Shown here: positions 18,092 to 58,428 of the stretch, one piece after another
Position numbering within the stretch: the first letter of the stretch is position 1
Layout: every line of letters begins with the position of its first letter
Sequence record: KC690136
DNA length: 64,000 nucleotides
DNA from: Escherichia phage JES2013
Direction: 5' to 3' (one strand)
Translations under genes and position numbers: made by a program
The notes under the pieces: model-generated
Databases searched by the model: none
Told to the model about the DNA's origin: nothing
The model's input: only the letters and a program-made list of their open reading frames with translations

Positions 18092-18643
18092 TTACTGACC
18101 ACTGTCTGTAACCGCTTTACCAGAATTGGGTGAAGGGAAGTGTGTGGTTATTTCAGCCTTAATTCCCTGAAGATCCTCAAAAGCCCCAATGTCTGTTTCA
18201 ACAAACCTTACGTTAAATGTCAGCATCACAGTGGCTCTATTTTCATACGTCTGCTTATTCAACGGCACTCTTTGAGGTGAGATTGTTGAATTGTTAGAGT
18301 AGGCAAAGCACGATCCCAGAGGGAAATACTTGTCATAAAACATTGGAAGGTTTATTGCTTGCAATACTCTGCTAAGTGCAGCATATGCCCTGCCACGATA
18401 AGCTGTTAACAGATAAGTAACAGTGTAACTGTGGGTGACGTAAGCATTACCCTCCGCATCTTGAAACTCATTATCTTCCCAAGTGGTGGGATTGATCGCC
18501 AAGGTTTGTAAAAGTACAAACTCACCTTCCGGCTTCGGTATGGTAGAGCTTTCTGCCAGAACTACAGTTCTTCCTGTGGCAACCTTGACGAGCTTAGCAA
18601 TGGTTGTTTCAAGATCAGAAAAAACTTTTTCGAAAGCTTCCAT
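18092..18643 (-). CDS. hypothetical neck/tail completion protein
   Basis: 183-aa ORF between capsid and tail genes. Confidence 0.4.
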   Translation of the reverse strand: MEAFEKVFSDLETTIAKLVKVATGRTVVLAESSTIPKPEGEFVLLQTLAINPTTWEDNEFQDAEGNAYVTHSYTVTYLLTAYRGRAYAALSRVLQAINLPMFYDKYFPLGSCFAYSNNSTISPQRVPLNKQTYENRATVMLTFNVRFVETDIGAFEDLQGIKAEITTHFPSPNSGKAVTDSGQ

Positions 18644-19068
18644 CAGTTTTCTCCTTCAGGCTCTTCTACCACAAAAAATCTATATCTCCCACCACCAGAG
18701 GTAACATATGCATCGCATTTTAAAACAGTAAACCATTTCAAGTCACCACGGATGTCAGGCAGCTGAATTTGGTCAGCCATTGCATATGTTCCTTCGTCCG
18801 GACTATACAACTTGGTTGAGGAGTAAACTGTAAAAGCCTCGTACTGTCTGTCACCTTCAGGGTTTATTTGAGAGGAGTAATCTTTAGCTGCCCTTCCTGT
18901 CAACGGCTGCACAACACAATCTAAGACATCAAACTCTTCATACTCAAGTTCTAACCCCTCGTTGGCAAAAGGGCCACCAACTGTTTTGTTATACACTCTG
19001 TGGCGACCTTTGAATGTTTTACGAGGTATTAGTCTGTTCTTTCCTATCAGCTTATAACCTGCTGCCAC
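18643..19068 (-). CDS. hypothetical head-tail joining protein
   Basis: 141-aa ORF, ATGA-type overlap with downstream gene. Confidence 0.4.
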   Translation of the reverse strand: MAAGYKLIGKNRLIPRKTFKGRHRVYNKTVGGPFANEGLELEYEEFDVLDCVVQPLTGRAAKDYSSQINPEGDRQYEAFTVYSSTKLYSPDEGTYAMADQIQLPDIRGDLKWFTVLKCDAYVTSGGGRYRFFVVEEPEGEN

Positions 19069-19084
19069 TCAACCCCCTTATTTT

Positions 19085-19555
19085 TTACTGTCCGATTTTA
19101 AAGGTTGCAGATTCAAGCAGCACATCGTAATGCCGCATAGCCTCGTTGAAGCCTTTCTCTTGTGCCCACTGCTCGCTAACAGTAGGATTACTAAACTGCC
19201 CAGCCTCAATAACAAACTGGATAGCTTTGGCCCCTGTGTCCCCCATCTGCTTAAGAATAGCCTCTGCACTTGATCCCCTAGCCATAGCTCTCAACAATTT
19301 TTCTGTCAAGGTCTGTAGTTGAGTGCTGTGAAATGCAAAAGCTGTCTCCATGAAATTGCGAACAGGCAGCCCGTTCCAACCGAAGTTGTGAATGGCTGCC
19401 AATGTTGCCATATTTAAGCCTGACGGGTGAGGTTCGTCATAAAAGCCGTAGGTTATTGTTTTACTTTCAAGTCTCACAAGTTCTTTGTAGAAGCGATCTA
19501 AACGCTTTAGGTTGAAACTTGTTTGACATTTAACCTTTAGCATTATATTCCTCAC
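19085..19555 (-). CDS. hypothetical head-tail connector region protein
   Basis: 156-aa ORF. Confidence 0.4.
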   Translation of the reverse strand: MRNIMLKVKCQTSFNLKRLDRFYKELVRLESKTITYGFYDEPHPSGLNMATLAAIHNFGWNGLPVRNFMETAFAFHSTQLQTLTEKLLRAMARGSSAEAILKQMGDTGAKAIQFVIEAGQFSNPTVSEQWAQEKGFNEAMRHYDVLLESATFKIGQ

Positions 19556-19596
19556 TAATGTATTTTACCACAAAGATACATCAAAAGCAACAATTT

Positions 19597-20274
19597 TTAA
19601 AAACTGCGTTTGCGTCTTGGGTGGCGAGGAGGTTGATTATTTAGACCACTGATAGGTGTAATCCCCTGAACATCGAACGGTCCGTTACTGTTTTCATTAA
19701 ATTTAACCCGAATTCCTTCGTCTACACGAACACCACCAATGATAATCATTCTGCTATAAGCATCTAGCTCAGAGTCTACATAATCTGGGTGTGCCAGCAG
19801 CCAATCAAGAAAATCTTTCCACTGAGCGTAGGAAGATCCACCACGAATCTCTATGGTCTCATCACCTATTTTTTCCAGACGAGAAGTTATACTTGCATTA
19901 CCACTGGAAACTTCCTGCATCATCAGCCACCGCACAAGCTGCACAAGCACATTGTACTTAAGCAGGGGTAGCTTATCAGGGTCTGCCGGATAATTTAGTT
20001 TCAGCTTCTCCATGTCAAGGAATGTTTTAATTACCCCATCAGGGAGTGTTTCCTCATCAACATTTCCAAGCAATAACCTCATAATATCAATAAGAGGTTG
20101 GTCTGGATCAGGTTCTGGGGGCACAGGATCTTCTTTTGGTGGTTCTTCTGGGGTATCGACTACACCATCATGGTTAGGCGGTGACGGGATAATCTCTTCA
20201 TCTTCATACCATGCCATTTGAAAATACCTCGTAAAAATAAAGCCCCATTCCTGATTTGGAAGGGGCCTTAACAA
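19597..20274 (-). CDS. hypothetical protein with Pro/Glu-rich segment
   Basis: 225-aa ORF. Confidence 0.4.
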   Translation of the reverse strand: MLRPLPNQEWGFIFTRYFQMAWYEDEEIIPSPPNHDGVVDTPEEPPKEDPVPPEPDPDQPLIDIMRLLLGNVDEETLPDGVIKTFLDMEKLKLNYPADPDKLPLLKYNVLVQLVRWLMMQEVSSGNASITSRLEKIGDETIEIRGGSSYAQWKDFLDWLLAHPDYVDSELDAYSRMIIIGGVRVDEGIRVKFNENSNGPFDVQGITPISGLNNQPPRHPRRKRSF

Positions 20275-28904: not shown

Positions 28905-29009
28905 TTTAAGGCTCCAGAAACGAAAAAACCCCGCAGCTATGCAGCTAACGGGGCGGGTTAAAATTGAGTAACCTAAATAGATCGAAACTAACTAAAAGGA
29001 GACTAATAC

Positions 29010-29279
29010 TTATCGAGGCACTCGGTGGATGATTCTAACAGTAACTGCATTTTCATTCATCAAGTATGCATCTACATCTCTGTAAATATAAAACTTCTGC
29101 TCACTATCAACAACACAAGCTACTGCCCCTTCAGAGTTGTCTTCAAAAAAGACCACCACTGCATCGCAGCTGAGTTCATGATATGACTCTCGAAGATTTA
29201 CAGCCAGAGGATTGAAATCGTCACGAAAATCTACGGTATGGGTTGGATTTACACGCTCTACAATTTTAAGTGTATACAT
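29010..29279 (-). CDS. hypothetical protein
   Basis: Track ORF 29010..29369 trimmed to internal Met (MYTLKIV) because the upstream part overlaps tRNA-Pro. Confidence 0.4.
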   Translation of the reverse strand: MYTLKIVERVNPTHTVDFRDDFNPLAVNLRESYHELSCDAVVVFFEDNSEGAVACVVDSEQKFYIYRDVDAYLMNENAVTVRIIHRVPR

Positions 29280-29325
29280 TTTAAAGGTTCCTTTTGTTTG
29301 TATATGTTTAAAGTATAACTGAAAG

Positions 29326-29402
29326 TGGTCTCCACGGAGTGATTCGAACACTCGACCTCCTGATCCCAAATCAGGCGCTCTACCAAGCTGAGCTACGCGG
29401 AG
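29326..29402 (-). tRNA. tRNA-Pro (anticodon UGG)
   Basis: Manual cloverleaf: acceptor CTCCGCG/CGTGGAG, D-arm GCTC/GAGC, anticodon loop TTTGGGA, T-arm GAGTG TTCGAAT CACTC, encoded CCA. Confidence 0.7.
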
Positions 29403-29413
29403 TATTCATTATT

Positions 29414-29488
29414 TGGTGGCCCTGGGTGGAATTGAACCACCGTCTGGCGATTATGAGTCGCTTGCTTGAACCTTCCAGCTACAGGGCC
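29414..29488 (-). tRNA. tRNA-Met (anticodon CAU; could be initiator, elongator or Ile2)
   Basis: Manual fold: acceptor GGCCCTG/CAGGGCC, anticodon loop CTCATAA, T-arm GGTGG TTCAATT CCACC, encoded CCA. Confidence 0.65.
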
Positions 29489-29489
29489 A

Positions 29490-29565
29490 TGGTGCTGATG
29501 GCAGGACTTGAACCTGCAACCTATTGATTACAAATCAATTGCACTACCAATTGTGCTACATCAGC
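29490..29565 (-). tRNA. tRNA-Thr (anticodon UGU)
   Basis: Manual fold: acceptor GCTGATG/CATCAGC, D-arm GCAC/GTGC, anticodon loop TTTGTAA, T-arm GCAGG TTCAAGT CCTGC, encoded CCA. Confidence 0.65.
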
Positions 29566-29570
29566 AAAAA

Positions 29571-29661
29571 GGTGCTAGGTGATGGAGTCGAACCACCCGA
29601 ATCGCAATGATAACAGATTTACAGTCTGCCCCGCTACCCCTACGGAATTAACTCACCTAAA
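29571..29661 (-). tRNA. tRNA-Tyr-like (anticodon GUA), atypical 5' half; 5' boundary uncertain
   Basis: Anticodon arm GCAGA CTGTAAA TCTGT identical in core to bacterial tRNA-Tyr; canonical T-arm GGTGG TTCGACT CCATC; long variable region; acceptor/D-arm pairing not resolved by hand. Confidence 0.45.
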
Positions 29662-29787
29662 TACTAATATTTAAATTCTTTTTAAAATAGCTAGTGTTCT
29701 CACCACTAACTATGAGGTATCGGTAAAGTGGTTACCGCCACTTGCCGAAGATTTACTCTGCTAAAGTAAGCTACATTAAAAAGAACT

Positions 29788-29862
29788 TGGCACCCCGTAC
29801 TGGACTCGAACCAGTGTCAACGGCTTAGAAGGCCGCTGCTTTATCCACTAAGCTAACAGGGC
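29788..29862 (-). tRNA. tRNA-Arg (anticodon UCU)
   Basis: Manual fold: acceptor GCCCTGT/ACGGGGT with G-U pairs, anticodon loop CTTCTAA, T-arm ACTGG TTCGAGT CCAGT, encoded CCA. Confidence 0.65.
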
Positions 29863-29920
29863 ACTGGGTGGCTTTCTTTTACACCTTAGCCGCCAGAAAA
29901 GGTGGGAGACCATGTTTACA

Positions 29921-29949
29921 ATATTACACTGTTAAGCAAAGTTTGTCAA
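29921..29949 (-). promoter_or_regulatory. sigma70-like promoter for tRNA cluster
   Basis: Minus-strand TTGACA (29949-29944), 17-nt spacer, TAATAT (29926-29921), ~55 nt upstream of tRNA-Arg 5' end. Confidence 0.55.
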
Positions 29950-29958
29950 GAAAATATT

Positions 29959-30297
29959 TTAGCTATTGCTAACAGGCTGTATTTCTGTGGTAAACGGCAT
30001 AAAAGGTGCTGGTTTTTCAGCCTCTTCTACTACCACCTCTTCCTCTTCACCAAACATCTCATCATATTCTTCCTGCATTCGGTCTGCCTTATCAAGAACA
30101 TACTCTGCAATGCTTTGACGAATATTTTGTTTGGTTTTCGGGTCCAACATCAGCTCTCTTAAAACTTTGTGAGCTTCTGGAACCATCGCTATAAAAGATT
30201 CCTTCATATCAAGGATGTTCTTCTCTAGCTGAATGGCGTTGGACTCCTCTTTCAGAGGTCTGCCTCTACGGCGACGCTTTTTAGTTGTATCCGCCAT
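29959..30297 (-). CDS. hypothetical basic/acidic protein with AT-hook-like motif
   Basis: Track ORF trimmed to Met with GGAGG RBS (MADTTKKRRRRGRPLKEE...); RGRP motif; acidic C-terminus. Confidence 0.5.
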   Translation of the reverse strand: MADTTKKRRRRGRPLKEESNAIQLEKNILDMKESFIAMVPEAHKVLRELMLDPKTKQNIRQSIAEYVLDKADRMQEEYDEMFGEEEEVVVEEAEKPAPFMPFTTEIQPVSNS

Positions 30298-30645
30298 GTT
30301 TCCTCCATTATCACGTGATAGGTGGATTTTATCACAGCAAATACTGATTGTCAAGTTCGCCGCAGGGTGGTGTTCCCTGCGACTTGTCCAGCGTCCTGGA
30401 CCAGCAAGACCCAACAAGTGGGTTTTCCAGCTATACCCATTACCGCGCTCAGGCTCGACCTTATTACAGGTTGGCTGGGGTCACATCGTCATGTGCTGGC
30501 TGCCCCTACCATTTTAAGTGTGGTGCACTATCAAGCCCTCTAAGGGGAACTCAGTCTTCTCCGAACCCTGTTTCAAAGCATCCGGAGATAAAGCCATCAA
30601 ATTCATCTTTAAATTGGATATTCATCATGATACACGAAAACAACC

Positions 30646-30888
30646 TCATTGTAAAGCGCAAATAAATAAAACATACTTAATTTGTTTGTTATCAGGCTCA
30701 GGGTAGAAGTAGAAGATCTTGCTATCACCGATCTGAACACCACCATCCCAACAGCATAGCCCATAACCTGTATTCATACAAGCTAAGTCGTTGGCAAAAT
30801 CTATTGCATCATCCAGTGCACGAAATTCACCTTCATCTTCTAAATAATCCTCATTCATGGAACGAAAAACGAGCTTAACCTTAAACAT
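30646..30888 (-). CDS. hypothetical protein
   Basis: 80-aa ORF. Confidence 0.35.
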   Translation of the reverse strand: MFKVKLVFRSMNEDYLEDEGEFRALDDAIDFANDLACMNTGYGLCCWDGGVQIGDSKIFYFYPEPDNKQIKYVLFICALQ

Positions 30889-30964
30889 AGCATTACCTGT
30901 AGACCTCGTAAGTTAAAATTGTAGCACATCATATTGCAGATCTTATCAGGTAACACTGTTTTTG

Positions 30965-31174
30965 TCAACAGATTCCGGCCTTATCTCGCCTGTCTGCGTA
31001 TTCTTTAATCGCAACCTCATCTGCATTAGTGACCAGGTCTTCAAAGTAACTCTCAAGCTCCTCGTCAATGTCAGGAGACCAGCTCTTTTTCCTGTCAGTG
31101 TGAATTGCAGACTTGTTGAACTTATTACAGTTCTTTGCTACCGGGTTATTCATTAAGCGCTCCTCAGCGTTCAT
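30965..31174 (-). CDS. hypothetical protein
   Basis: 69-aa ORF overlapping upstream gene end. Confidence 0.35.
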   Translation of the reverse strand: MNAEERLMNNPVAKNCNKFNKSAIHTDRKKSWSPDIDEELESYFEDLVTNADEVAIKEYADRRDKAGIC

Positions 31175-31742
31175 AGTAAATTTTATTTAACATTACCTCA
31201 TCCTTTGCAGAAAGAATACCGAGATATGCATCACCGAATCTACCTGCAACAACCTCTGCATGATACATTACTTCGTTAATATCGTCAAGAGTGATAACTG
31301 GATGACCGTATCTCTCTGAGTATTGTCTCAGAGTGCGATGTAGAGAGTCATCATCATAGGCAGACTTTTTAATATCACAAACACGACGAATAGCCTTGAT
31401 GTCGAAAAACCCTGTACGATACCAACCAAGAAAAAGGTTTCGTGCAGTGTCAACATCTACATCAATACCATCAAGAACCTTATCTACAAGATAGCTATCA
31501 TCCTTTGGACTCGCTTCCTTAGTGCGGATATAGTTGCCATCTTTTCCAGGTGACAGCTCCTTCTCATCACCAGCCTTCATGTCATCATTTGGCGGGGTTA
31601 GCCACTTATCCGGATGCTTACGATCACGAGCGTTAGAATGATTACGCTGGAAACCTGGCTGCCACTTGAAAGTTTTCTCCATCTGTTCTTCATTCTGATA
31701 ACGTTTTGCAATCTTTTCACGGTCATCTTTGCGTGAACTCAT
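31164..31742 (-). CDS. hypothetical protein
   Basis: 192-aa ORF with GAGGAGG RBS upstream of ATG. Confidence 0.5.
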   Translation of the reverse strand: MSSRKDDREKIAKRYQNEEQMEKTFKWQPGFQRNHSNARDRKHPDKWLTPPNDDMKAGDEKELSPGKDGNYIRTKEASPKDDSYLVDKVLDGIDVDVDTARNLFLGWYRTGFFDIKAIRRVCDIKKSAYDDDSLHRTLRQYSERYGHPVITLDDINEVMYHAEVVAGRFGDAYLGILSAKDEVMLNKIYYER

Positions 31743-32246
31743 AGCTGCCTCCTCTTCAAGTTATAGAAAAACTCACTGTATCGCTTTGTAACGAGCTTTT
31801 CTATCAAACTGGTGCGATTGCATTACTTGGTATGGTTTATATAGCTGTGGAGCGATTTAGGGTCCTTCTTGTCCGTTTCCACACATAAACTTTATCCAAA
31901 CTCGCGCGGGAGGCTCTCAACCGACTCCTTACGGCGCTGGCAAGCTTTCGTCGGTGGCCCACATTAGTGCTCGGCCTTTGGCCTGCGCTATCGCTTCGCT
32001 CCCACACATGTTAACAGACCTGCATGTATGCACTTCTGTTATTGTGTGCACTATGGAGGCCCGGCATCTCGCCCCTCGTAGGCGAGTGCCAATGAAGGGC
32101 CGACACTACCCATAGTAAGTAATAAATTTAAAACATGGTACTTAGGATCTAATATATTCTACATAAGTTAAGTATATGTACTTTAGTACCATAAGTACTA
32201 GATCTTTTATTTTTTATTATTCAGTTATTTTAGTTATATTCTTTAT

Positions 32247-32311
32247 GTGTCCGTATCACGGACAGTTAGTGTCCGTATTACGGGCAGTAGTGTCCGTATC
32301 ACGGACAGTTA
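32247..32311. repeat. three tandem copies of a palindromic ~16-bp site (GTCCGTATCACGGAC) at 22-bp spacing; iteron/operator-like array
   Basis: Copies at ~32249-32265, 32271-32287 (variant GTCCGTATTACGGGC), 32293-32309; preceded by AT-rich tract 32111-32245. Confidence 0.6.
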
Positions 32312-32382
32312 GTGGACTCTGTTCCAGAGCGAACATAAAACATACGAATCCTTATAGTACAGATATTTAAGTTTTTACTGGT

Positions 32383-32733
32383 CTAACCAGTTGTTGACAT
32401 CCGAATAACCTCTTCTGGTGGCAAAACTTTGGAAAATGTGCATCTTTTACCTCTCCCTTGTGTGGATGTTTCAACCACCCCCGCACACTCTAAAGTTTTA
32501 ACGCACGCTGCTGCTTTTGTTTTCTTTATCCCAACATCTGCTGCAATTTTCCTTGTGCTTGGTGTGAAGCGTGAATTTCCTCCAAGCTTATACCAGTTGT
32601 GCAGGTAGCAGTATACAATCTTGTCATACAAGTCAAGAACAACAACCTCTCCAGTTGTGTCATTCAAAACTTTTGACATAGACAGTATTTCAAGGGGGAC
32701 TTTAAGATATAGCAGCTTATCCCCATCTTTCAT
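32383..32733 (-). CDS. putative helix-turn-helix DNA-binding protein
   Basis: 116 aa; segment STRKIAADVGIKKTKAAACVKTLECAGVVE resembles an HTH/winged-helix; adjacent to the palindromic repeat array. Confidence 0.4.
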   Translation of the reverse strand: MKDGDKLLYLKVPLEILSMSKVLNDTTGEVVVLDLYDKIVYCYLHNWYKLGGNSRFTPSTRKIAADVGIKKTKAAACVKTLECAGVVETSTQGRGKRCTFSKVLPPEEVIRMSTTG

Positions 32734-32780
32734 ATCTCCTGATTCTCCTTGTGTGGCAATTTTCTTTAAAATAGCAGGGA

Positions 32781-33335
32781 TTACTCCCCGCTGTCAATAG
32801 CAAAACTCATTGCAATACGGTATGCTTCTTCTAATGGTAAGAGTCTCCCCCACACATCCCAACCGACATCAAGCTGCCTGCCAAACAACTGTTGTGTGGT
32901 TCCGTGAGCATGACCGAACAGTTGGACTGATCCATGAGGCTTTCTGTTCCACTTTGCAAACTGGTAATGGCTCATACAGATCAAATTCTTGTTGTGGCGA
33001 AGCTCGTAATAATCTACAACCTCGTGATAGAACTCTTTCATAATTCTGACAGTCGTCCTTGTGTCATGGTTGCCACGAACAAGAATAATATGTCCGTTCA
33101 ACATATTTAGAATATCCGGGAGTAAGTTGTTGATATTCTTATCATTAGTGCACGCAATATCTCCCAAGTGGAACACAGTGTCTGCAGGTGACACAACAGA
33201 GTTCCACTCGGCGATGATTCCTGCATTCATACTGTCAAGATTGTGATCATACTGAGATCTGTGTTTTTGACATGAATCAAACTCCATGACCCGCTGGTGG
33301 AGAAAGTGTGTGTCGCTTGTTACAAAGTATTTCAT
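32781..33335 (-). CDS. metallophosphoesterase (calcineurin-like phosphatase)
   Basis: Motifs DxH (VTSDTHF), GDxxD-like (HLGDIA), GNHD (RGNHD), GHxH (FGHAHG); start trimmed to Met preceded by GAGGA RBS. Confidence 0.65.
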   Translation of the reverse strand: MKYFVTSDTHFLHQRVMEFDSCQKHRSQYDHNLDSMNAGIIAEWNSVVSPADTVFHLGDIACTNDKNINNLLPDILNMLNGHIILVRGNHDTRTTVRIMKEFYHEVVDYYELRHNKNLICMSHYQFAKWNRKPHGSVQLFGHAHGTTQQLFGRQLDVGWDVWGRLLPLEEAYRIAMSFAIDSGE

Positions 33336-33342
33336 ACATTCC

Positions 33343-33753
33343 TCATTTAAGTTTAATGCAGTTTTTAAGCTGGCGTTCCATACGATCCACAACCCTGTCT
33401 GGAACATCATGAATGCTTTTATTACCGTGGCGGTTTTCAACCACGATCACGGTATAACTATACCCATGACTGATTGCCATGTCAACATATTCCTGCACAT
33501 GTTTTTCTTTTGTAAACGTATTACTTACCACGATACGGTCGTATCCCATACGCATCATATCTTCTACGTTATCTTTGCACCATTTTGCTGCGAGTGTTAC
33601 TTTACTTGCATCCCAGTTGTAATTGCCGTCATCGTCATACCAGAACATGTCGTTCTCAAAATGTGGATACAGACCTTCTAAAGATAGCGCATTTGCCAGT
33701 GTTGATTTGCCAGACCCTGGCAGACCACGCACGATATATAGCATTTTAGACAT
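33343..33753 (-). CDS. P-loop kinase, polynucleotide kinase-like
   Basis: Walker A GLPGSGKST at N-terminus similar to T4 Pnk kinase domain (GCPGSGKST); start at Met after GGAGG RBS. Confidence 0.55.
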   Translation of the reverse strand: MSKMLYIVRGLPGSGKSTLANALSLEGLYPHFENDMFWYDDDGNYNWDASKVTLAAKWCKDNVEDMMRMGYDRIVVSNTFTKEKHVQEYVDMAISHGYSYTVIVVENRHGNKSIHDVPDRVVDRMERQLKNCIKLK

Positions 33754-33871
33754 AGCAATCCTCCGTTTTAATTTTAATGATAGTATACCTAACTGTTTTG
33801 TTAATTTCAAGTGTTGACACTAGGTTATTTGTGTGGCAGGATAGACTGACAAAATGACAAATGAGGAACGT

Positions 33872-34789
33872 ATGATGAAGTATTTTAATGCAGACGATCT
33901 AGTTGACAAAGGTCTTGTAACCAGCAGATATTACCCAGATCTTGGATTAAAGATTTATAAATATGCCAGAAAAGTATTTTACAACAATTTATGGCATTTG
34001 TCCCCTCGTTTGCTGGAGTGCCGAGGCATTGTTGTCGGTAATGAAGGAAATGTTGTGGCATGGCCCTTCACAAAAGTGTTTAACTTGGGAGAAAATCACA
34101 CCAACCTGCCTGACAATAAGCTTGTGACGGCGGTAGAGAAAAAGAACGGATTCCTCGGTGTGGTGTCATCTCATAAAGGTGAACTATTGTTCTCAACAAC
34201 CGGATCTCTTGATTCCCCATATTGTAACCTCGCAAAGGAAACCATCCGGGAGCAATGTGGTAATTTAGATCTTATCAAGAAGGTTATGGGCAATGAAAAC
34301 ATGACATTCATGTTTGAAATTTGTCACCCTTCAGATCCGCATATTGTTCAGGAAGATCATGGCGCATATTTGATAGGTTGCAGATATAATGATTCTGGAA
34401 TAATGCTACCAGAAGCAGCTTTAGATGGGATTGCCAAATACCTTGGCGCAAAACGTCCTCACACTGTGCGTGAAATTCCGTTCAGCTATGCAAAAGAATT
34501 GGCTGCAGAAACAAGAGGTGAAGGGTATATGATTCGTAAGCCTTACTACCCTTATGATCTGCAGCTGAAGATCAAGTCTCCATACTATCTGGCACGGAAG
34601 GCCGTAATGAGGGGTAAAGCTTGGAAGATTTGGGATGATGATATCTTTAAACGTGTTGACGAAGAGTTTTACGGCATGGTAAACTTCATTCGTAGCAATT
34701 ACACAGAAGATGTGTGGAACTGCCTACTGGAGCAGGAACGCAGGGAGATACTCGACCACTATTTCCACAACGAGGACTATATGCAATGA
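33872..34789 (+). CDS. putative RNA ligase (Rnl1/tRNA-ligase-like nucleotidyltransferase)
   Basis: Candidate ligase motifs: I KKNG (VEKKNGFLG), IV EGYMIRK, V LQLKIK; start chosen at ATG with GAGGA RBS (track ORF begins at 33854). Confidence 0.5.
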   Translation: MMKYFNADDLVDKGLVTSRYYPDLGLKIYKYARKVFYNNLWHLSPRLLECRGIVVGNEGNVVAWPFTKVFNLGENHTNLPDNKLVTAVEKKNGFLGVVSSHKGELLFSTTGSLDSPYCNLAKETIREQCGNLDLIKKVMGNENMTFMFEICHPSDPHIVQEDHGAYLIGCRYNDSGIMLPEAALDGIAKYLGAKRPHTVREIPFSYAKELAAETRGEGYMIRKPYYPYDLQLKIKSPYYLARKAVMRGKAWKIWDDDIFKRVDEEFYGMVNFIRSNYTEDVWNCLLEQERREILDHYFHNEDYMQ

Positions 34790-49048: not shown

Positions 49049-51360
49049 TCACCAAGGTAATTAAAAGCAACGGATGTGAAGTGGCATTCGATCCAGAACG
49101 TTTAAATAAGGCAGCTATTTTCGGTGACGACGGTAACGGCAATTGGTCACACATTGCACTGGATGCATACAAACGACTGTATGATGGATGTACAACCAAA
49201 GAAGTTAACCAAGCTATCATAGACTCCTGTGTTAGCCGTAAAGACGAAGCACATTCCCGTATGGCTGGTCGTGTTCTTATTGGTCAGATTTATAAAGAGG
49301 CTTTTGGAGGGTTTACAAAGATCCCTTCCTTACCATCATTTTACAATACCATGGTTGAGAAAGGGTATTGGGAGGATATGGGATATAGCTTTACCGAGCT
49401 AAACACTTTAGACGCTGTTATTGACCACAGTAAAGATCTCGGTTATGGCTATGCAGTCCTTAAACAGTTTCGCGACAAATACGGGATCAAGGATACTCTT
49501 AAAGACACCTTGTTTGAATCTCCCCAGATGATGTTTATGGGGATAGCAATGGCTGTCATGAAGAATATGCCGAAAGAACGTCGTATCAACGATGTTGTAA
49601 AATTATACACTTATCTGTCCGACTTAAAGATCAATGCCCCAACACCGTACTTAAACGGGCTGCGCACAGGTAAGACAGGGTATGCATCTTGTTGTGTAAT
49701 AAAAGCTGACGATACAGCAAAATCTATTGGTGTGGCACGTGAAGTTGCGTACACAATGACGGTTAACCAAGCAGGTATCGGCTACTATTTATCATCAAGA
49801 TCTGCAGGCGATGGTGTTCGTGGTAACACTATTAAACACATGGGTAAGATTCCATATTATCGAGGTATTGATGCTGGGGTTAAGGAGAACAGACAACAAT
49901 CACGTGGCGGTTCTGCAACAGTATCATTCCTTGCACTAGACCCACAGATTGATGAGCTAATCCGTTTGAGAAACCCTATGACTGTTGCTTCAAAAAGAAT
50001 CAACACCATGGACTACTCTATAGGTATTAACAGGTCGTTTATCAACCGTGTGGCTAAGAATTTAGATTGGATGCTTGTTTCTTATAAGCACGCGCCTCAA
50101 CTGCATGAAGGTATCTTCACCATGTCTATGGAGGAGTTTGATGCAGAGGTTGATCGTATCGCTAAAGATGACAGTATTCCTAAAACATGGATCCGAGCTA
50201 GAGATCTTGCTGTTGAGCTGATCACGCAGCGTACCGAAGTGGGAAGGCTGTACGTATACTGGACAGATGAGATGAATAGACATACACCTTTTAAAGATGT
50301 GATCTATTCAAGTAACCTGTGTGCAGAAATAGCCCTCCCGACAAAAGGCTATTCAGATATGCGTAATATCTTCAAGTACGATGTTGATGATGGTGAGGTT
50401 GCATTGTGCTTCCTGTCATCTCTTGTAGCTGGAAGGGTTACCCCAGAGGAGTATGAGGATGTTGCATACTATACGGTGCTTATGATTGACAATGTTATGG
50501 AAATCATGACATATCCATATGAAAATATGGAGAGCACTGTTAAAAAACGCAGATCCATCGGGGTTGGCCTTACCAATGTTGCACATTTTATTGCCAGCCA
50601 CAAGGTTACTTACGGATCTCCTGAAAGTAAACAGCTTGTTCACGATCTTGCAGAACTTCACAGCTACAGCTTGCATAAGGCAAGTTTACGGTTGGCAAAA
50701 GAGCGTGGTGTCTGCGAGTGGATGCATAAAACAAAATATCCAGAAGGTTGGTTACCAATCGACACCTATAACAAAGAGGTAGATAGCGTGGTGAAAGATC
50801 CTTCTCTTAAACAGGATTGGGAAGGGTTACGTAAAGAAATCATTGAAAATGGTGGGCTACGTAATAGCGTTCTTGAAGCATATATGCCTAATGAAAGCTC
50901 TTCGCTGGCAACAAACACCACTAATGGGGTTTATCCTGTCCGTGAGCACATCATCTTTAAAAAATCGCCACAAGGGCAGGTGCTGTTTATCGTTCCTGAC
51001 TATGATGAGTTGAAAGAGTATTACACCTCGGCTTGGGACGTTGATACTAACGACATGATCGATATGTATGCTGTGATTCAAAAATTCACAGGTCAGGCAA
51101 TCAGCGCGGATTTATACATAGACTACACCAAGTTGAAAGATGGTAAAATTTCAATGAAGGAGCAGCTAGGGTACCTTATCCGTGCCACTAAATTTGGGAT
51201 GAAGACATGGTATTATTTAAACTCTAGGGTTGGTGCTGGTGACTCCTTGGCAGAGGAACTTCATGCCAAGAAACAGGCTGAAGATGAAACCAGAAAGAAC
51301 TACCCTTTGATTGCAGATAGTTCAGTTGAAGATCCGTATTGCGAAAGCTGTGCACTATAA
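49045..51360 (+). CDS. nrdA: ribonucleotide reductase class I large subunit
   Basis: 771 aa; N-terminal ATP-cone (VIKSNGCEVAFDPERLNKA), active-site NLCAEIALP, C-terminal Cys pair. Confidence 0.85.
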   Translation: MITKVIKSNGCEVAFDPERLNKAAIFGDDGNGNWSHIALDAYKRLYDGCTTKEVNQAIIDSCVSRKDEAHSRMAGRVLIGQIYKEAFGGFTKIPSLPSFYNTMVEKGYWEDMGYSFTELNTLDAVIDHSKDLGYGYAVLKQFRDKYGIKDTLKDTLFESPQMMFMGIAMAVMKNMPKERRINDVVKLYTYLSDLKINAPTPYLNGLRTGKTGYASCCVIKADDTAKSIGVAREVAYTMTVNQAGIGYYLSSRSAGDGVRGNTIKHMGKIPYYRGIDAGVKENRQQSRGGSATVSFLALDPQIDELIRLRNPMTVASKRINTMDYSIGINRSFINRVAKNLDWMLVSYKHAPQLHEGIFTMSMEEFDAEVDRIAKDDSIPKTWIRARDLAVELITQRTEVGRLYVYWTDEMNRHTPFKDVIYSSNLCAEIALPTKGYSDMRNIFKYDVDDGEVALCFLSSLVAGRVTPEEYEDVAYYTVLMIDNVMEIMTYPYENMESTVKKRRSIGVGLTNVAHFIASHKVTYGSPESKQLVHDLAELHSYSLHKASLRLAKERGVCEWMHKTKYPEGWLPIDTYNKEVDSVVKDPSLKQDWEGLRKEIIENGGLRNSVLEAYMPNESSSLATNTTNGVYPVREHIIFKKSPQGQVLFIVPDYDELKEYYTSAWDVDTNDMIDMYAVIQKFTGQAISADLYIDYTKLKDGKISMKEQLGYLIRATKFGMKTWYYLNSRVGAGDSLAEELHAKKQAEDETRKNYPLIADSSVEDPYCESCAL

Positions 51361-51364
51361 TTTT

Positions 51365-51386
51365 AAAGGGGCTTCGGCCCCATTTT
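51365..51386 (+). terminator. rho-independent terminator/attenuator after nrdA
   Basis: Hairpin GGGGC TTCG GCCCC followed by ATTTT. Confidence 0.5.
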
Positions 51387-51398
51387 AGAGGTAGAATA

Positions 51399-52487
51399 AT
51401 GGCTGTATTTAATGCTGAGAACACCGCTCATAAAACTGGTGACTATCCGCTGTTTCTGGGACAGCAAATGGGTATGTACGACTCTATCAACAAAAAATAT
51501 CCACAACTGTTCGAACTGTACAAAAAACAAAAAGAACAAGACTGGGCAGAGGATGAAGTGGATTTGTCGCAATCTATTTCAGATTTTGTAACATGCTCCA
51601 AGTCAACTTATGATGTGATGGTGCAGACCTTGATGTGGCAATGGGAGGCTGATAGCGTTGCGGCAAGATCGATCATCTGCCTCTTTTCACCATTCATCAC
51701 TAATAGTGAGCTTTTCACTCTATTGATGAAACAGTCAGAGATTGAAGTTCTTCACGCACTAACTTACTCAGAGATTGTTAGACAATGCCTCCCCAATGCC
51801 CGTGAGATTATAGAAGAGATTCAGGAAAACCAAAACGTTCTGAGCAGATCTGGCGTTATTGTCAAATACATGCAAGAGCTTGAGGTTATTGGTGCAAAAT
51901 ACCGACTGGATCCTTCTAGTGTTGAAGAAGATATTGTGCGGAAATGCATTCTTAGAGCGCTTTTTGCACTTTTAGCCCTGGAAAGTATTGAGTTTATTGC
52001 AAGTTTTGCATGCACTTTCGCAGTAGCTGAACAGGGTATTTTTGTTCAGGTGGCGCAGCTTGTTCAAAAAATCATGCTTGACGAAATGCTACATTCGAAA
52101 GGTGATTTTGCCATCATTGATATCCTGCTTAATGATCCGGCATGGGAGAAAAGCTTCCTTGAGATAAAAGGGGAGTTAAAAGAGATTCTTGATGAAGTAC
52201 GAACCAAAGAGTACGGTTGGAGTGACTATATTTTCAGCGAAGGAAGAGCGATTATAGGTCTTAACTCACCGTTGCTTAAAGAATGGGTTGACTATAACTG
52301 CTCACCGATTTATGATTACTACGGCATCGACAAAGACTTTGTGCCGCCAACAAAGGACCCTCTACCGTTTATGCAGGTGTGGATGAAACCTTCATTGCAA
52401 CAGACGGCGAACCAAGAAATGTCGAACACTGACTACCGCGTCAACACAACTGTTAATGACGCTGAAGAAGAAATTTGGGAGTTTTAA
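51399..52487 (+). CDS. nrdB: ribonucleotide reductase class I small subunit
   Basis: Directly downstream of nrdA; helical ferritin-like sequence; start trimmed to MAVFNAENT after terminator hairpin. Confidence 0.75.
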   Translation: MAVFNAENTAHKTGDYPLFLGQQMGMYDSINKKYPQLFELYKKQKEQDWAEDEVDLSQSISDFVTCSKSTYDVMVQTLMWQWEADSVAARSIICLFSPFITNSELFTLLMKQSEIEVLHALTYSEIVRQCLPNAREIIEEIQENQNVLSRSGVIVKYMQELEVIGAKYRLDPSSVEEDIVRKCILRALFALLALESIEFIASFACTFAVAEQGIFVQVAQLVQKIMLDEMLHSKGDFAIIDILLNDPAWEKSFLEIKGELKEILDEVRTKEYGWSDYIFSEGRAIIGLNSPLLKEWVDYNCSPIYDYYGIDKDFVPPTKDPLPFMQVWMKPSLQQTANQEMSNTDYRVNTTVNDAEEEIWEF

Positions 52488-52490
52488 TAC

Positions 52491-52769
52491 ATGAGCTGTG
52501 AAAAATCTTTTTTCTTTATTATTTACGGTAAAGATAACTGCCCACATTGTGTAAGAGCAAAAGAATTTGCAGTCAGTAAAGGTCTGCCTTTTGTATATAA
52601 GACACTTGGCGAGGGTTACACAAAAGAAGAGCTTATCGAGAAGTGCAGTCCAATCGTACCCAGAACGTTGCCGCAGATCTTCTTAGAAAGCAATCTTGAA
52701 AGTGTCCATATAGGCGGTGCCGACGATTTCATCTCTTTTGTTAAGAATGGTTTTGGAGAGAAAAAGTGA
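52491..52769 (+). CDS. glutaredoxin-like protein
   Basis: 92 aa with CPHC redox motif near N-terminus; sits between nrdB and nrdD. Confidence 0.65.
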   Translation: MSCEKSFFFIIYGKDNCPHCVRAKEFAVSKGLPFVYKTLGEGYTKEELIEKCSPIVPRTLPQIFLESNLESVHIGGADDFISFVKNGFGEKK

Positions 52770-54889
52770 AAGTTGTAAAACGGGACGGTAGAGAAGAGGT
52801 CTATAACGGAATTAAGGTGATCAAGGCGGCAGAGTCCGCCTTACTTGAGTCTGGACATACTGAAGAAGAAGCTTACCGGATCGCCTGCGCGGTTAATGAA
52901 GTTGTTGCTAACAATCTACCAACCGACCAGTGCACGATCTCTGTAAAAAATATCCATATCCTTGTTGAAGACGCTCTTATGGATATGGGTTTAAAATGTG
53001 CAGCCAGAGAATACATCCAGTATAGGCAGACAAGAGATAATAACAGAGAGGCAGGTGGAAAACTGCTTGCAGATATTAGTGGCTTCTTGGATCGCACTTG
53101 TGATGAATTTACAAAAGAAAACGCAAATAAGCCTACCAATCATGTACACACTCATCGTGACCTGCTTGCAGGCATCCTTAGCAAACACCTTGCATCAACA
53201 CAGATCCTGCCAGACCGTGTCTCAGAAGAGCACAATAAAGGCTTCATCCATGTGCATGATCTTGACTACTTGATCAGTCCGTTAACAAACTGTTGTTTGG
53301 TAAATTATCCAGATATGTTGGAAAACGGATTCAACATTGGCAACGCCCATGTCAGTAAGCCGAAGTCAATAGGGGTTGCAACAACAATCCTTAGCCAAAT
53401 CTCTAGTGCAGTAGCTAGTGCTCAATATGGAGGTCAGACTATGAGCCATATTGATCATTATCTGGCACAGTATGCTGAGGCGACCTATGAGAAGAATCTT
53501 AAATTTTGCCAGGAACACTGGTTGCCAGATGCTGAGACTGTTGCAATGCAAATGACAGATAAAGACGTATTTGACAGCATGCAGACTTTGCTCTATCAAA
53601 TCAATACGTTAACCTCTGTCAACGGGCAAACTCCATTCATCACATTAAGTTTAGGACTGGATACCTCGGTCTTTGGTAGAATGATTACCAAAAACTACTT
53701 GAAAGTCCACAAAATGGGTCTTGGTGAAGAACGTATCACACCTGTGTTCCCTAAAGTGCTGTTCTTCCTAGAAGAGGGTGTCAACATGAGCCCTGGAGAT
53801 CCCAACTATGATTTGAAACGATTAGCTCTGGAATGCTCTGCAGAGCGGATTTATCCTGACTTTGTTTCTGTTCCACTAAATCGTAAAGTGACAGGCTCGA
53901 CAGATGGCAAAGTAACGAGCATGGGTTGCCGGAGTTTTCTTAGCAAATACAATGACTTGGAAACAGGCGAGGAGAAATACCTTGGTAGATTTAACTTAGG
54001 CGTTGTTAGCCTTAACCTGCCAATGATTGCGGCAAAAGCTAAAACGGAAGGTGTTGATTTCTTTGCAGTTCTTGACGAATACCTGGATCTTGCATACGAG
54101 GCTCACCTTGTAAGGGTTAACCGTCTAAAAGGAACAAAGGCAGGGCAGAACCCTATCATGTGGTGTGAAGGCGCTCTTGCTCGCCTGGATCCTGAAGAGA
54201 GTATTGATAAACTCTTCTATGACGGGTACGCTTCCATCAGTATTGGGTATATTGGTGTGTATGAAACCTGTCAGATTTTGGGCAGGGAGGGTGACAAGGC
54301 TTTAGCTCTTGGAATACTCCAGCACATGAGAGATGCTTGTGAGCGATACAAGAAGGAAAGTAGACTAGCGTTTAGCTTGTACGGCACCCCTTCTGAGAGT
54401 CTATGCTATAAAGCTGCAACCTGTCTGGATCGTGAATATCCTGAAGTGTTGAAGCATGAGCATGAATACCTCACCAACAGTTTCCATCAGCCAGTATGGA
54501 TAAATAGCTCTCCTTTTGATAAGTGGGAATACGAGGAAGGTTTTGCTATGATCTCCTCTGGTGGCAACATCGGATACGTAGAGACACCAAATCTGAAAAA
54601 CAACTTAGATGCTTTAGAGGCTCTTGTTGACTTCGGGTATAAACACATTATGTATTTTGGTATCAACCAGCCTGTGGATAAATGTCTTAAGTGTGGTTTC
54701 TCTGGTGAGTTCAGTGCAACAGCTAAGGGATTCGTATGCCCGGAGTGTGGAAACCATGAAGAGGGAACGATCAGTGTGATCAGACGTGTATCCGGGTACC
54801 TGTCTAGTCCAAACTCCCGTCCTTACAATAAAGGTAAGCAAGCGGAAGTTATAGAACGGGTTAAGCACTACGGAAGTTGTGGTTGCTGA
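52766..54889 (+). CDS. nrdD: anaerobic ribonucleoside-triphosphate reductase
   Basis: 707 aa; N-terminal ATP-cone; C-terminal zinc ribbon CLKCG...CPECG and glycyl-radical motif RRVSGYL; GTG start overlapping glutaredoxin stop. Confidence 0.85.
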   Translation: MKVVKRDGREEVYNGIKVIKAAESALLESGHTEEEAYRIACAVNEVVANNLPTDQCTISVKNIHILVEDALMDMGLKCAAREYIQYRQTRDNNREAGGKLLADISGFLDRTCDEFTKENANKPTNHVHTHRDLLAGILSKHLASTQILPDRVSEEHNKGFIHVHDLDYLISPLTNCCLVNYPDMLENGFNIGNAHVSKPKSIGVATTILSQISSAVASAQYGGQTMSHIDHYLAQYAEATYEKNLKFCQEHWLPDAETVAMQMTDKDVFDSMQTLLYQINTLTSVNGQTPFITLSLGLDTSVFGRMITKNYLKVHKMGLGEERITPVFPKVLFFLEEGVNMSPGDPNYDLKRLALECSAERIYPDFVSVPLNRKVTGSTDGKVTSMGCRSFLSKYNDLETGEEKYLGRFNLGVVSLNLPMIAAKAKTEGVDFFAVLDEYLDLAYEAHLVRVNRLKGTKAGQNPIMWCEGALARLDPEESIDKLFYDGYASISIGYIGVYETCQILGREGDKALALGILQHMRDACERYKKESRLAFSLYGTPSESLCYKAATCLDREYPEVLKHEHEYLTNSFHQPVWINSSPFDKWEYEEGFAMISSGGNIGYVETPNLKNNLDALEALVDFGYKHIMYFGINQPVDKCLKCGFSGEFSATAKGFVCPECGNHEEGTISVIRRVSGYLSSPNSRPYNKGKQAEVIERVKHYGSCGC

Positions 54890-54891
54890 TA

Positions 54892-54920
54892 CTTGACAAA
54901 AGCCACAAGGATGTGGCATA
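54892..54920 (+). promoter_or_regulatory. putative promoter with palindromic spacer element
   Basis: TTGACA (54892-54897) followed by dyad GCCACA AGGA TGTGGC and CATATT; upstream of 54953 ORF. Confidence 0.35.
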
Positions 54921-54952
54921 TTATTGACACACAGTGAGCTAGGAGGTACAGT

Positions 54953-55069
54953 ATGTCTACAGGTATTTATAAAATTTGCAAGTGTGGTTGTCGTTGCAAT
55001 CTTCGTTGGTGCAAGGCACTGGACGATTTTATTTGGCATTGCCCTAAATGTGATGCGGAGTATCTATGA
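54953..55069 (+). CDS. small Cys-rich (zinc-ribbon-like) protein, 38 aa
   Basis: MSTGIYKICKCGCRCNLRWCKALDDFIWHCPKCDAEYL; AGGAGG RBS; stop overlaps nrdG ATG (ATGA); below the ORF-track size cutoff. Confidence 0.5.
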   Translation: MSTGIYKICKCGCRCNLRWCKALDDFIWHCPKCDAEYL

Positions 55070-55539
55070 ATATTGCCGGATACACAGAAATATCTTACAC
55101 CGAAGGGCCAGGTATTAGAACTGCCTTATGGGTATCTGGGTGCCCACACGCTTGCCCTGGTTGCTTTAATCAGGCATTTTGGTCAAAAGATAAGGGGAGA
55201 GAGTTTACTGAAGAAGACTTGCAAAAAATCTTGTCAGATTTAGATAACCCGTCTGTGTGCGGTATCTCTCTGCTGGGTGGAGAACCCTTAGCATACTATA
55301 ATGAGCCAGATATTATTAGCCTGATGGAGAAAATTAAGGAAAAATTTGGTGACAAGAAAACTATTCTTGTATATACTGGGTTCACATTTGACCATATCTC
55401 TAGTGATGTTCTTAAACTGGCTGATATCATCATTGACGGTAAGTATGTAAAAGATTTACCAACCAAGAAACCGTTCCGAGGCAGTGATAACCAAAGAATG
55501 TTTAAAAAAGTATCAGGCGGTTGGGTCCAGGTAGACTAG
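55066..55539 (+). CDS. nrdG: anaerobic ribonucleotide reductase activating protein (radical SAM)
   Basis: CPHACPGC (CxxxCxxC) radical-SAM cluster motif; directly downstream of nrdD. Confidence 0.8.
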   Translation: MNIAGYTEISYTEGPGIRTALWVSGCPHACPGCFNQAFWSKDKGREFTEEDLQKILSDLDNPSVCGISLLGGEPLAYYNEPDIISLMEKIKEKFGDKKTILVYTGFTFDHISSDVLKLADIIIDGKYVKDLPTKKPFRGSDNQRMFKKVSGGWVQVD

Positions 55540-55542
55540 CTG

Positions 55543-55572
55543 TTGACAAAGCTTTGTTTAGATAGGTATAAT
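55543..55572 (+). promoter_or_regulatory. strong sigma70 consensus promoter
   Basis: TTGACA (55543-55548), 18-nt spacer, TATAAT (55567-55572). Confidence 0.6.
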
Positions 55573-55603
55573 TATCGTAAAATGAAAGCAGAGGAGGTGC
55601 CAA

Positions 55604-55717
55604 ATGGCTAAAAAAGCCTTGAAGAAGGCGTACAAAAAAGAAATTGCGCTTGAGCTCAAGAAAAAACACAAGCGTGAAAAGAAACATCATGAGGATGAAG
55701 AGGGGGTGCAACAGTGA
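55604..55717 (+). CDS. small highly basic protein, 37 aa
   Basis: MAKKALKKAYKKEIALELKKKHKREKKHHEDEEGVQQ; GAGGAGG RBS; stop overlaps next gene start (GTGA). Confidence 0.45.
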   Translation: MAKKALKKAYKKEIALELKKKHKREKKHHEDEEGVQQ

Positions 55718-56064
55718 CACAAGAACGTATCGATTTGGCTAATAAGTTTGTAGATCTCATTTTGCCACGGTTAGTTACTCAACATGCAGACGCTATTTCT
55801 ACTAATCTTGATGGCTTACGCCTAATGCTGAATCGCACAGATGACCCTCGTATTCGGGCTGATTTAGAAGCCTCTGCCAACAAACTGGAAAAGTTCTTGC
55901 AAGTAGACACGCAAGAAGCCTTACACAAGATTATGGTGGAAGGTTTCTCTAAAGAATTTACCATTAAAGAGCTTAAGGAGCTGATCCACCAAGAAGAGAT
56001 GAATATCCGAGTTCAGGCTGTTGCAAGCAGCATGGAAGCGGCTATTGAAAAACTGTTGCAGTAA
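55714..56064 (+). CDS. hypothetical helical protein
   Basis: 116-aa ORF, GTG start. Confidence 0.45.
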   Translation: MTQERIDLANKFVDLILPRLVTQHADAISTNLDGLRLMLNRTDDPRIRADLEASANKLEKFLQVDTQEALHKIMVEGFSKEFTIKELKELIHQEEMNIRVQAVASSMEAAIEKLLQ

Positions 56065-56102
56065 AAGTACTTGGCACATCTCAATCTGAAAGGAGTCCCA
56101 AC

Positions 56103-56891: not shown

Positions 56892-56935
56892 TACAGAAGG
56901 GTGGTTATTCCACCCTTAGATATCTAAAACAGTTG

Positions 56936-56964
56936 TTGACAAACAGGTAAGATTTAGATATTAT
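56936..56964 (+). promoter_or_regulatory. sigma70-like promoter
   Basis: TTGACA (56936-56941), 17-nt spacer, TATTAT (56959-56964); preceded by hairpin GGGTGG TTAT TCCACCC. Confidence 0.5.
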
Positions 56965-56994
56965 TACCGGACAAGACAAGGAGAAGGAGATAGT

Positions 56995-57306
56995 ATGGCT
57001 ACAATACAAGAGAGACTGAATAAAATATACTGCCTGTTTGTCTATAACGGCGAGACAATTTTGGCAAATAAAGGATCCAAGAATGTGTGGATCAAGGACA
57101 GGGGTGGTAATATAATCAACTTAGCGTTGCTACGTGAGCGCCGACACAGATTCTTTATCGAGTCTCGGATTATTGAAAGCAGCACCTGCTACAGAACAGG
57201 CGATAAAGTAATTGTTGACAATGATACGTGGTATGTGGTAGACTGGCAATCATTGAGCTGTGATGCTTCTGACAATCGTAAGTATTCCCTAGTGATTGCT
57301 AAATAA
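56995..57306 (+). CDS. hypothetical protein
   Basis: 103-aa ORF with GGAGAAGGAG RBS. Confidence 0.45.
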   Translation: MATIQERLNKIYCLFVYNGETILANKGSKNVWIKDRGGNIINLALLRERRHRFFIESRIIESSTCYRTGDKVIVDNDTWYVVDWQSLSCDASDNRKYSLVIAK

Positions 57307-57366
57307 AGGTAAATGTGAATCAGGTTTAAATAAATAGCTTTCAACTTCCAATATTAAGGATTTCTC

Positions 57367-58416: not shown

Positions 58417-58428
58417 ACATTAATTCTA

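Follow-up and report, generated by a model that had tools for sequence, protein, structure and literature searches.

A phased array of palindromic sites beside an AT-rich tract in Escherichia phage JES2013, a candidate replication origin module of rV5-like phages

In the 64,000 nucleotides of Escherichia phage JES2013 analysed here (sequence record KC690136; the whole stretch is called the window), a 17-bp palindrome, TGTCCG-N5-CGGACA, is repeated three times in phased order between an AT-rich tract and a gene for a winged-helix protein of 116 amino acids (aa). The repeats are very probably an array of protein-binding sites, and we infer that the winged-helix protein is probably what binds them. 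Taken together, the array and the AT-rich tract may form an origin module of the lambda-ori/iteron-plasmid type, a reading that we put forward tentatively. Elements combining phased palindromic iterons, a winged-helix protein and an AT-rich tract belong to a known kind; what is new is the instance in Vequintavirus (rV5-like phages), since no description of an origin, operator, iterons or satellites of Vequintavirus was found in the literature searched. The elements concerned are the following.

32247–32314, no strand: array of three 21/22-bp units, one 17-bp palindrome per unit
32248–32264: unit 1, palindrome TGTCCG-N5-CGGACA
32270–32286: unit 2, palindrome with one half-site mismatch
32291–32307: unit 3, palindrome TGTCCG-N5-CGGACA
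32111–32246, no strand: AT-rich tract of 136 bp at 19.9% GC; contains short dyads and two GATC/AGATCT motifs and is a candidate for a DNA-unwinding element, a promoter region or both
32383–32733, minus strand: winged-helix gene, product AKE45423.1 of 116 aa; candidate array-binding protein consisting of an initiator-type DNA-binding domain only

The start-to-start spacing of the units is 22 bp and then 21 bp, with GTCCGTATCACGGAC at 32249 and 32292 and the variant GTCCGTATTACGGGC at 32271. A first-pass annotation, made from the letters of the window, had described 16-mers at 32249, 32271 (variant) and 32293 in 22-bp phase; the first two positions and the first interval are as described, while the third repeat lies at 32292, the second interval is 21 bp and the repeats are 15/17-mers. 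Because the extended unit, G-TGTCCG-YRTBR-CGGACA-GT, lacks symmetry, the units are direct repeats of palindromic sites. That they are palindromic and non-random is borne out by the motif counts, as a search at up to three mismatches returned 7 strand-matches in the window compared to 0.04 expected from dinucleotide shuffles. Over the phage genome of ~142 kb, the motif at up to one mismatch occurs at the array locus only, and at up to two mismatches it has 3 matches outside the array compared to 3.7 in shuffles. The presence of one cluster in ~142 kb fits a cis-acting site better than a regulon, and a single cis-acting cluster per replicon is also the pattern of iteron plasmids. Some GenBank records label the array as an unexplained 'repeat_region'.

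The region 31000–34000 matches Escherichia coli O157 typing phage 4 (KP869102.1) at 100% identity and more than 100 further Vequintavirus genomes at 96–97%. We compared the locus in 15 GenBank relatives and three metagenome contigs. The number of units is 2 in phage navn, 3, 4 in most genomes and 6 in typing phage 14, and this variable copy number resembles that of lambdoid origins; the first interval always measures 22 bp and every later one 21 bp. Across 61 units (13 distinct sequences from 16 genomes), changes are absent or number one or two at the flanking G, TGTCCG, the central T, CGGACA and the following G, and the remaining four central positions vary freely. The nucleotide diversity (pi) of the array unit, 0.006–0.012, is the lowest in the region, compared to 0.03–0.045 in the flanking genes. 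The rare half-site changes are uncompensated, one leaving a G-U pair only on the plus strand and another only on the minus strand, and a seventh potential stem pair is not kept across units. Near-invariant half-sites, a variable centre and uncompensated stem changes are the mark of a duplex site read by a symmetric dimer and not of a selected RNA hairpin.

This pattern bears directly on the reading of the units as RNA hairpins in the 3′ untranslated region of the winged-helix mRNA, where they would stabilise the transcript or terminate it. The array does lie just past the stop codon, no intrinsic terminator is predicted anywhere in 31100–34000, and a 7-bp stem is possible in each unit at −8.4 to −9.0 kcal/mol. 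However, unit 2 reaches only −3.8 kcal/mol on the mRNA-sense (minus) strand, there is no U-tract downstream, and the direction of wobble is inconsistent between units. The substitutions in the stems are uncompensated, and exact 21/22-bp phasing combined with invariant half-sites around a variable centre typifies a site bound as duplex; we consider RNA hairpins highly improbable.

A degenerate scan of IMG/VR for the motif returned chiefly single chance matches and one informative analogue; no Vequintavirus contig in IMG/VR carries the exact array unit. The analogue, IMGVR_UViG_3300037493_002298, is an unrelated high-GC viral contig with three TGTCCG-N5-CGGACA palindromes at 21/22 bp (positions 819–880), located within the linker of a ~250-aa Rep-like gene with a weak HTH_36 match, in a lambda-O-like layout. 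Its array is the product of a motif-selected search and serves as an analogy only, and its Rep-like protein has no significant similarity to the 116-aa protein of the window.

The AT-rich tract ends 1 bp before the array and has the lowest GC content among all 12,773 windows of 136 bp tested over the 64 kb. The ~135 bp of AT-rich DNA reported in the first-pass annotation is therefore real, and the short dyads that it quoted were found at 32184, 32138 and 32194. The tract is near-invariant among relatives (pi of 0.019 compared to 0.03–0.045 in the flanking genes), and both the AAAAGATCT motif and the order array, A-rich run, AAAAGATCT, hairpin are common to other genera. A simple scan found no sigma-70 consensus promoter in the tract. 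T4 ori(uvsY) and ori(34) and the T7 primary origin consist of a promoter and a downstream unwinding element and are not known to have an iteron array or dedicated origin-binding winged-helix protein. The phage resembles T4 and T7 in being lytic with its own replisome, and transcription into the AT-rich element could provide opening or a primer; it differs from them in that no consensus promoter was found in the tract. An origin of the T7/T4 promoter type was thus left unsupported by the empty promoter scan.

The winged-helix gene was annotated at 32383–32733 in the first pass as a putative helix-turn-helix (HTH) gene near the array, and this holds: it is on the minus strand, encodes a winged helix, and its stop codon is 68 bp from the array end. 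Its variable sites fall mostly at third codon positions (38/10/8), indicating a real gene under purifying selection. The protein is marginally below the Pfam cut-offs for DUF6945 and HTH_36, and it defines PHROG 12838 ('replication initiation protein') with weak matches to other Rep PHROGs. Close homologues occur in Vequintavirus only, no relative was found in IMG/VR, and word-index and full HMMER searches returned essentially Vequintavirus proteins only, so the family is not nameable from sequence alone. Sequence searches of the PDB gave a generic winged helix, and a match to RepA_N at the sequence level was insignificant (E about 0.8). An AlphaFold2 (AF2) model from a 27-sequence alignment, with a mean predicted local distance difference test (pLDDT) score of 75.6, is a winged helix to which a strand is added at the N terminus and a helix at the C terminus. 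The model resembles the DnaD N-terminal domain (8ojj, 2vn2) and RepA_N (4pta) at full length over 92–103 residues, whereas its match to transcription regulators is restricted to a core of 60–85 residues. The predicted fold class is initiator-like, with the domain standing alone.

The idea that the downstream 192-aa protein is a split-off C-terminal part of the initiator found no support: the protein has no Pfam match and does not resemble the neighbour gene of Mydovirus. A sigma-70-like site on the minus strand at 32797–32768 (TTGACA, an 18-bp spacer, TATTTT and an extended −10) falls within the end of the phosphoesterase gene, just ahead of the winged-helix gene, and a small hairpin, CTGGT-TAG-ACCAG at 32380–32392, spans the winged-helix stop codon.

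Homologues of 105–127 aa with 14–27% identity to the window protein are encoded by Seunavirus, Mydovirus, Henunavirus and three metagenomic relatives. The Seunavirus protein matches positions 9–113 of the 337-position Rep PHROG 8102 (E 3e-36), and PHROG 'replication initiation O-like' families give weak matches to the relatives' proteins. Each homologue is accompanied by 2–3 repeats of its own at 23–26 bp directly upstream of its start codon, again palindromic (TGCTCAA-A-TTGAGCA or TATTCC-N6-GGAATA); next to the repeats come an AT-rich tract containing AAAAGATCT motifs, a short hairpin, and sigma-70-like promoters placed back to back. The related phage VEcB (Stephanstirmvirinae), which is without the winged-helix gene, has no such array. 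The repeats thus co-vary with the protein across genera, which supports a cognate pair. Furthermore, the order of gene, array and AT tract is retained between Vequintavirus and the other genera although the orientation of the gene is reversed, and this fits an orientation-independent function of the DNA.

A close parallel is the lambda origin, where dimers of a winged-helix initiator domain bind the iterons. There are four 19-bp inverted-repeat iterons in lambda and six iterons in Stx phages, and two iterons with the AT tract suffice for unwinding (PMC7466680). As is also well established, activation of the lambda origin needs transcription through the region (PMC7466680). Like the origins of the lambdoids, including P27 and 933W, the array consists of tandem imperfect inverted-repeat iterons (19 bp in lambda, 17 bp here), their number varies (4 or 6 in lambdoids, 2–6 here), they are at least two in tandem at about two helical turns, and an AT-rich tract directly adjoins them. 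In contrast to the lambda type, the array lies past the stop codon and not inside the initiator gene, the protein is a single winged-helix domain and not a two-domain initiator, there is no C-terminal domain for a P/DnaB-type loader, and no significant sequence similarity to lambda O exists; the phage itself, a lytic myovirus of 140 kb, encodes its own polymerase and primase-helicase. Two defining features of the lambda-O family are lacking, as the iterons are outside the gene and there is no second domain, and the relation is best worded as 'works like' and not as membership. A comparable parallel is offered by the plasmids pSK41 and pTZ2162, whose initiators are of the RepA_N/DnaD N-terminal domain type. 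RepA_N-type initiators have a second, host-specific domain and iterons within the rep gene. The phage locus shares with pSK41/pTZ2162 the phased repeats and the single cis cluster, the predicted fold of its protein resembles such initiator domains over 92–103 residues, and it differs in having no second domain, iterons outside the gene and an insignificant RepA_N sequence match.

On the far side of the AT-rich tract lies a further element.

31840–32110, minus strand favoured (tentative): GC-rich structured non-coding element, 55% GC, flanking the AT tract

It folds with a z of about −3 on both strands, and an 18-nt indel within it deletes one inner hairpin. Some records annotate small open reading frames (ORFs) in this region; a coding role was rejected, as the variable sites show no codon periodicity (11/10/10) and frameshifting 1-bp indels occur just upstream of an annotated 56-aa ORF. 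Repeated UGUGUGGG-type motifs were also seen within the element. In Rfam 15, it stays below the gathering threshold everywhere (best match rli43, 24 bits compared to a threshold of 100); the only matches at gathering threshold are four tRNAs, and a permissive E-value adds noise only. Homologues of the element were found in 117 Vequintavirus phage records and six E. coli plasmid records only, including the following.

NZ_CP020521.1, CP148565.1, NZ_CP035869.1, NZ_CP178698.1 and NZ_CP043822.1: five plasmids of 13.2–13.7 kb per unit with a homologue of the GC-rich element

NZ_CP043822.1 is a 39.6-kb record with three places matching the element, which suggests a trimer. Four of the five plasmids are typed as non-mobilizable in PLSDB, and NZ_CP178698.1 was seen only in the E. 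coli genome set. A further record, CP057073.1 (137,565 bp, PLSDB, filed as an E. coli plasmid), matches the element as phages do, is as long as a Vequintavirus genome and is probably such a genome carried in, or co-assembled with, a culture. Between phage and plasmid, two hairpins of the element carry five compensatory pair changes while all of their stem pairs stay intact, and the minus strand is the one that the conserved G-U pairs agree with; as a comparison of two clades only, this covariation is limited evidence. The element is a candidate for a new structured RNA or single-stranded DNA signal.

The parallel extends beyond the element itself. Three plasmid variants were examined (NZ_CP020521.1, CP148565.1 and NZ_CP035869.1), and each has 4–7 palindromic iterons at 23-bp phase after the element, in the same orientation as in the phage; in NZ_CP020521.1, the one plasmid inspected for these, AT-rich repeats lie between the two. 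The iterons differ for each variant (CGGAAATATTTACCG in NZ_CP020521.1, TGAGAAATCTTCA and GGGAAATTCCAAC in the others). Near them is an HTH protein of 288–303 aa (303 aa in NZ_CP020521.1) with weak matches to 'replication initiation O-like' PHROGs; for the alignment of its helix-wing region to the profile of the phage family, the hhalign probability is 88.6%. Any plasmid needs an origin. As no replicon type is listed for the ~13-kb plasmids and no other Rep candidate was seen in the fully annotated one, the iteron/HTH region is the best candidate for their replicon, and the phage locus shows the same arrangement. The likeness is one of arrangement: the plasmid iterons are unrelated to TGTCCG-N5-CGGACA, the protein is larger, the elements are spaced more widely, and the plasmid origin is itself only predicted.

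The plasmid that was annotated in full, of 13.7 kb, has genes for a major capsid protein, baseplate and tape measure; terminase and portal are not among its annotations. Its capsid protein is remote from that of the phage (23% identity), and the GC-rich element is its sole DNA similarity to 50,697 phage records, the 117 matching ones all being Vequintavirus. The ~13-kb plasmids could be satellites or mini phage-plasmids related to Vequintavirus. In a wider reading, Vequintavirus and these capsid-encoding plasmids, possibly satellites, would have in common a portable, cis-acting module for replication made up of array, AT tract and GC-rich element, in which the GC-rich element would be a new class of structured RNA or single-stranded DNA, a priming or packaging signal for the Vequintavirus machinery, and interchangeable iterons and winged-helix proteins would set the specificity of initiation. 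We regard this wider reading as doubtful and unlikely as a whole.

The oriV of RSF1010/R1162 has iterons, an AT-rich segment and ssi priming hairpins that act when single-stranded. The phage locus has the same tripartite order of iterons, AT-rich tract and GC-rich hairpin element; there is no homology to RSF1010/R1162, and no gene for a RepB′-type primase or RepC lies beside the array. By analogy we purely infer that the GC-rich element might have a priming role.

The sharing of the GC-rich element could also mean that the region is a packaging (pac) signal or a cis-acting hijack signal, chiefly through the GC-rich element, that Vequintavirus packaging proteins would recognise and that the satellite-like 13-kb plasmids would have copied, with the palindromes as sites for a small-terminase-like or accessory protein. 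It would account for the shared element and for a plasmid that has capsid, baseplate and tape-measure genes without annotated terminase or portal; the region is also upstream of the packaging genes, and one phage assembly, MG065672.1, is opened at the array. However, the palindromes are specific to each element in phage and plasmids, whereas a hijacked signal would be expected to be identical. The compensatory stem changes fit RNA or DNA in single-stranded form, not a terminase site in duplex DNA, the fold of the adjacent protein is predicted to be initiator-like and not terminase-like, and assembly breaks at tandem repeats are presumably a common artefact. A pac signal is improbable on these grounds.

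A more serious rival is that the array is a transcriptional operator or roadblock bound by the winged-helix protein with no role in replication, and several of the observations that speak for it also weigh against an origin. In Seunavirus, Mydovirus and Henunavirus, the palindromes lie within a 5′ leader of ~150–240 nt, between a strong sigma-70-like promoter and the start codon, a classical location for an autoregulatory operator. The winged-helix gene is there the first of an operon, wHTH-prs-nampt, which encodes NAD-salvage enzymes and not replication proteins; a gene for ribose-phosphate pyrophosphokinase comes second and, where enough of the locus is covered, one for nicotinamide phosphoribosyltransferase third, and the Seunavirus protein scores near the threshold for Pfam 'wHTH-PRTase associated'. 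The protein of the window is a DNA-binding domain alone, without the helicase-loader-recruiting part of lambda O and plasmid Reps, and its profile also matches MarR, SlyA and ArsR regulators. The AT tract is kept in sequence and not only in composition, which suggests specific sites such as promoters. Further points weigh against an origin. The iterons are outside the gene, and no DnaA (TTWTNCACA) or IHF (WATCAANNNNTTR) consensus occurs in 31700–32400, and both are at chance level over the whole window. The replication genes are ~75 kb from the array, beside a gene-poor region of 3.5 kb that is a rival candidate for the origin. Finally, GC skew lends no support, as the cumulative minimum coincides with the divergent strand switch at 33810/33854, 1.5 kb from the array; the strand-switch zone in which the first-pass annotation had placed the array is therefore elsewhere, and GC skew was discarded as an origin marker. 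The rV5 genome paper likewise found that GC skew tracks transcription and that skew analysis failed to locate an origin.

KP869102.1 16412–19896, outside the window: gene-poor region beside the polymerase, primase-helicase and RecD-like genes

This gene-poor region, probably the 'non-coding' box on the rV5 genome map, has many ACTGTTTAC/ACTGTTCAC direct repeats at 18480–18944 and a stretch of 33–34% GC with inverted repeats at 18800–19700 (KP869102.1 coordinates).

As an operator, the array could serve autoregulation, the block of early read-through into the tRNA, packaging and structural genes, or the control of an AT-tract promoter driving the GC-rich leader and the 192-aa gene. Every gene from ~29000 to 33810 is on the minus strand; upstream of the array on that strand is a short early-looking unit (a kinase-like ATPase, the phosphoesterase and the winged-helix protein), and downstream come small ORFs and four tRNAs, with the genes for endonuclease VII, terminase, portal, protease and capsid further on. 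With no intrinsic terminator after the winged-helix gene, a protein roadblock would be plausible as a boundary between early and late genes.

29326–29862, minus strand: tRNA cluster Pro-TGG, Met-CAT, Thr-TGT, Arg-TCT, between the array region and the packaging genes

Yet the array of the window is at the 3′ end of its gene and thus not a classical promoter-proximal autorepressor site; the sigma-70-like site for this gene is at 32797–32768, and only the homologues of the other genera have palindromes by their promoter. No linkage to NAD-salvage genes was seen near the array in the window. The AT tract has no sigma-70-type promoter by scan, 2–6 sites at exact helical phase exceed the needs of a simple operator, the order of gene, array and AT tract persists despite the inverted gene, and the plasmid parallels point to a replicon. 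We therefore consider a purely transcriptional role to be somewhat unlikely. Iteron Reps commonly autoregulate, and the roles of origin and operator are compatible.

Under the tentative origin reading, winged-helix dimers would sit on one face of the DNA, each on a 17-bp palindrome and two helical turns from the next, and the resulting nucleoprotein complex would destabilise the adjacent AT-rich tract. Early minus-strand transcription from the winged-helix gene may assist this opening by reading through, no terminator being predicted after that gene. The phage's own T7-gp4-like primase-helicase could then enter, and replication would start at this place. On the far side of the opened tract, priming or a leader function would fall to the GC-rich element. 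The first-pass annotation had proposed a phased binding array with an unwinding element, as origin or operator; the array, the AT tract, the winged-helix neighbour and the conservation uphold that proposal, and the argument from the strand switch drops out. It is strengthened by the copy number of 2–6 with invariant half-sites, the single genomic site, the initiator-like predicted fold, the analogous units in other genera and the plasmid parallel.

Two further features lie between the array and the winged-helix gene.

32311–32331, no strand: hypervariable patch of 21 bp immediately following the last unit; may be a terminal repeat unit that has decayed
32332–32382, no strand: conserved spacer from the patch to the winged-helix stop codon, pi 0.026, 8/51 columns variable

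The patch has a pi of 0.30 with 17 of its 21 columns variable among 16 genomes, far above the synonymous-site variation of the adjacent winged-helix gene, and is bordered on either side by the most conserved DNA of the region. Most of its variants match the repeat unit at 8–12 of 20 positions at a common offset (shuffled mean 8.0, 95th percentile 10), in a register 4 bp out of phase, so that its origin as a decayed unit is weakly supported. Inspection of its variants ruled out a conserved hairpin.

At its left end the window loses collinearity with KP869102.1 in a comparison of window positions 1–1000 with 50001–59700 of that record, the offset being 58611 at window positions 200–600 compared to 59563 from 29500 onward. 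This shift of 952 bp indicates an indel or a different genome; the array locus itself is identical.

The rV5-like phages are widely used broad-host-range candidates for biocontrol and therapy of E. coli, and the locus provides a concrete, testable candidate for their origin: binding sites spanning ~70 bp, the protein of 116 aa and an AT tract of 136 bp. If the reading is true, it would supply a minimal origin that could be used in engineering and in vectors whose amplification depends on the phage, and it would show an origin-binding protein consisting of the DNA-binding domain only that directs a T7-gp4-type replisome. The link to plasmids through the GC-rich structured element was unexpected. 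A structured element common to phages and 13-kb capsid-encoding plasmids, a combination for which we found no earlier description, points to a possible helper–satellite or common-replicon relation between the two.

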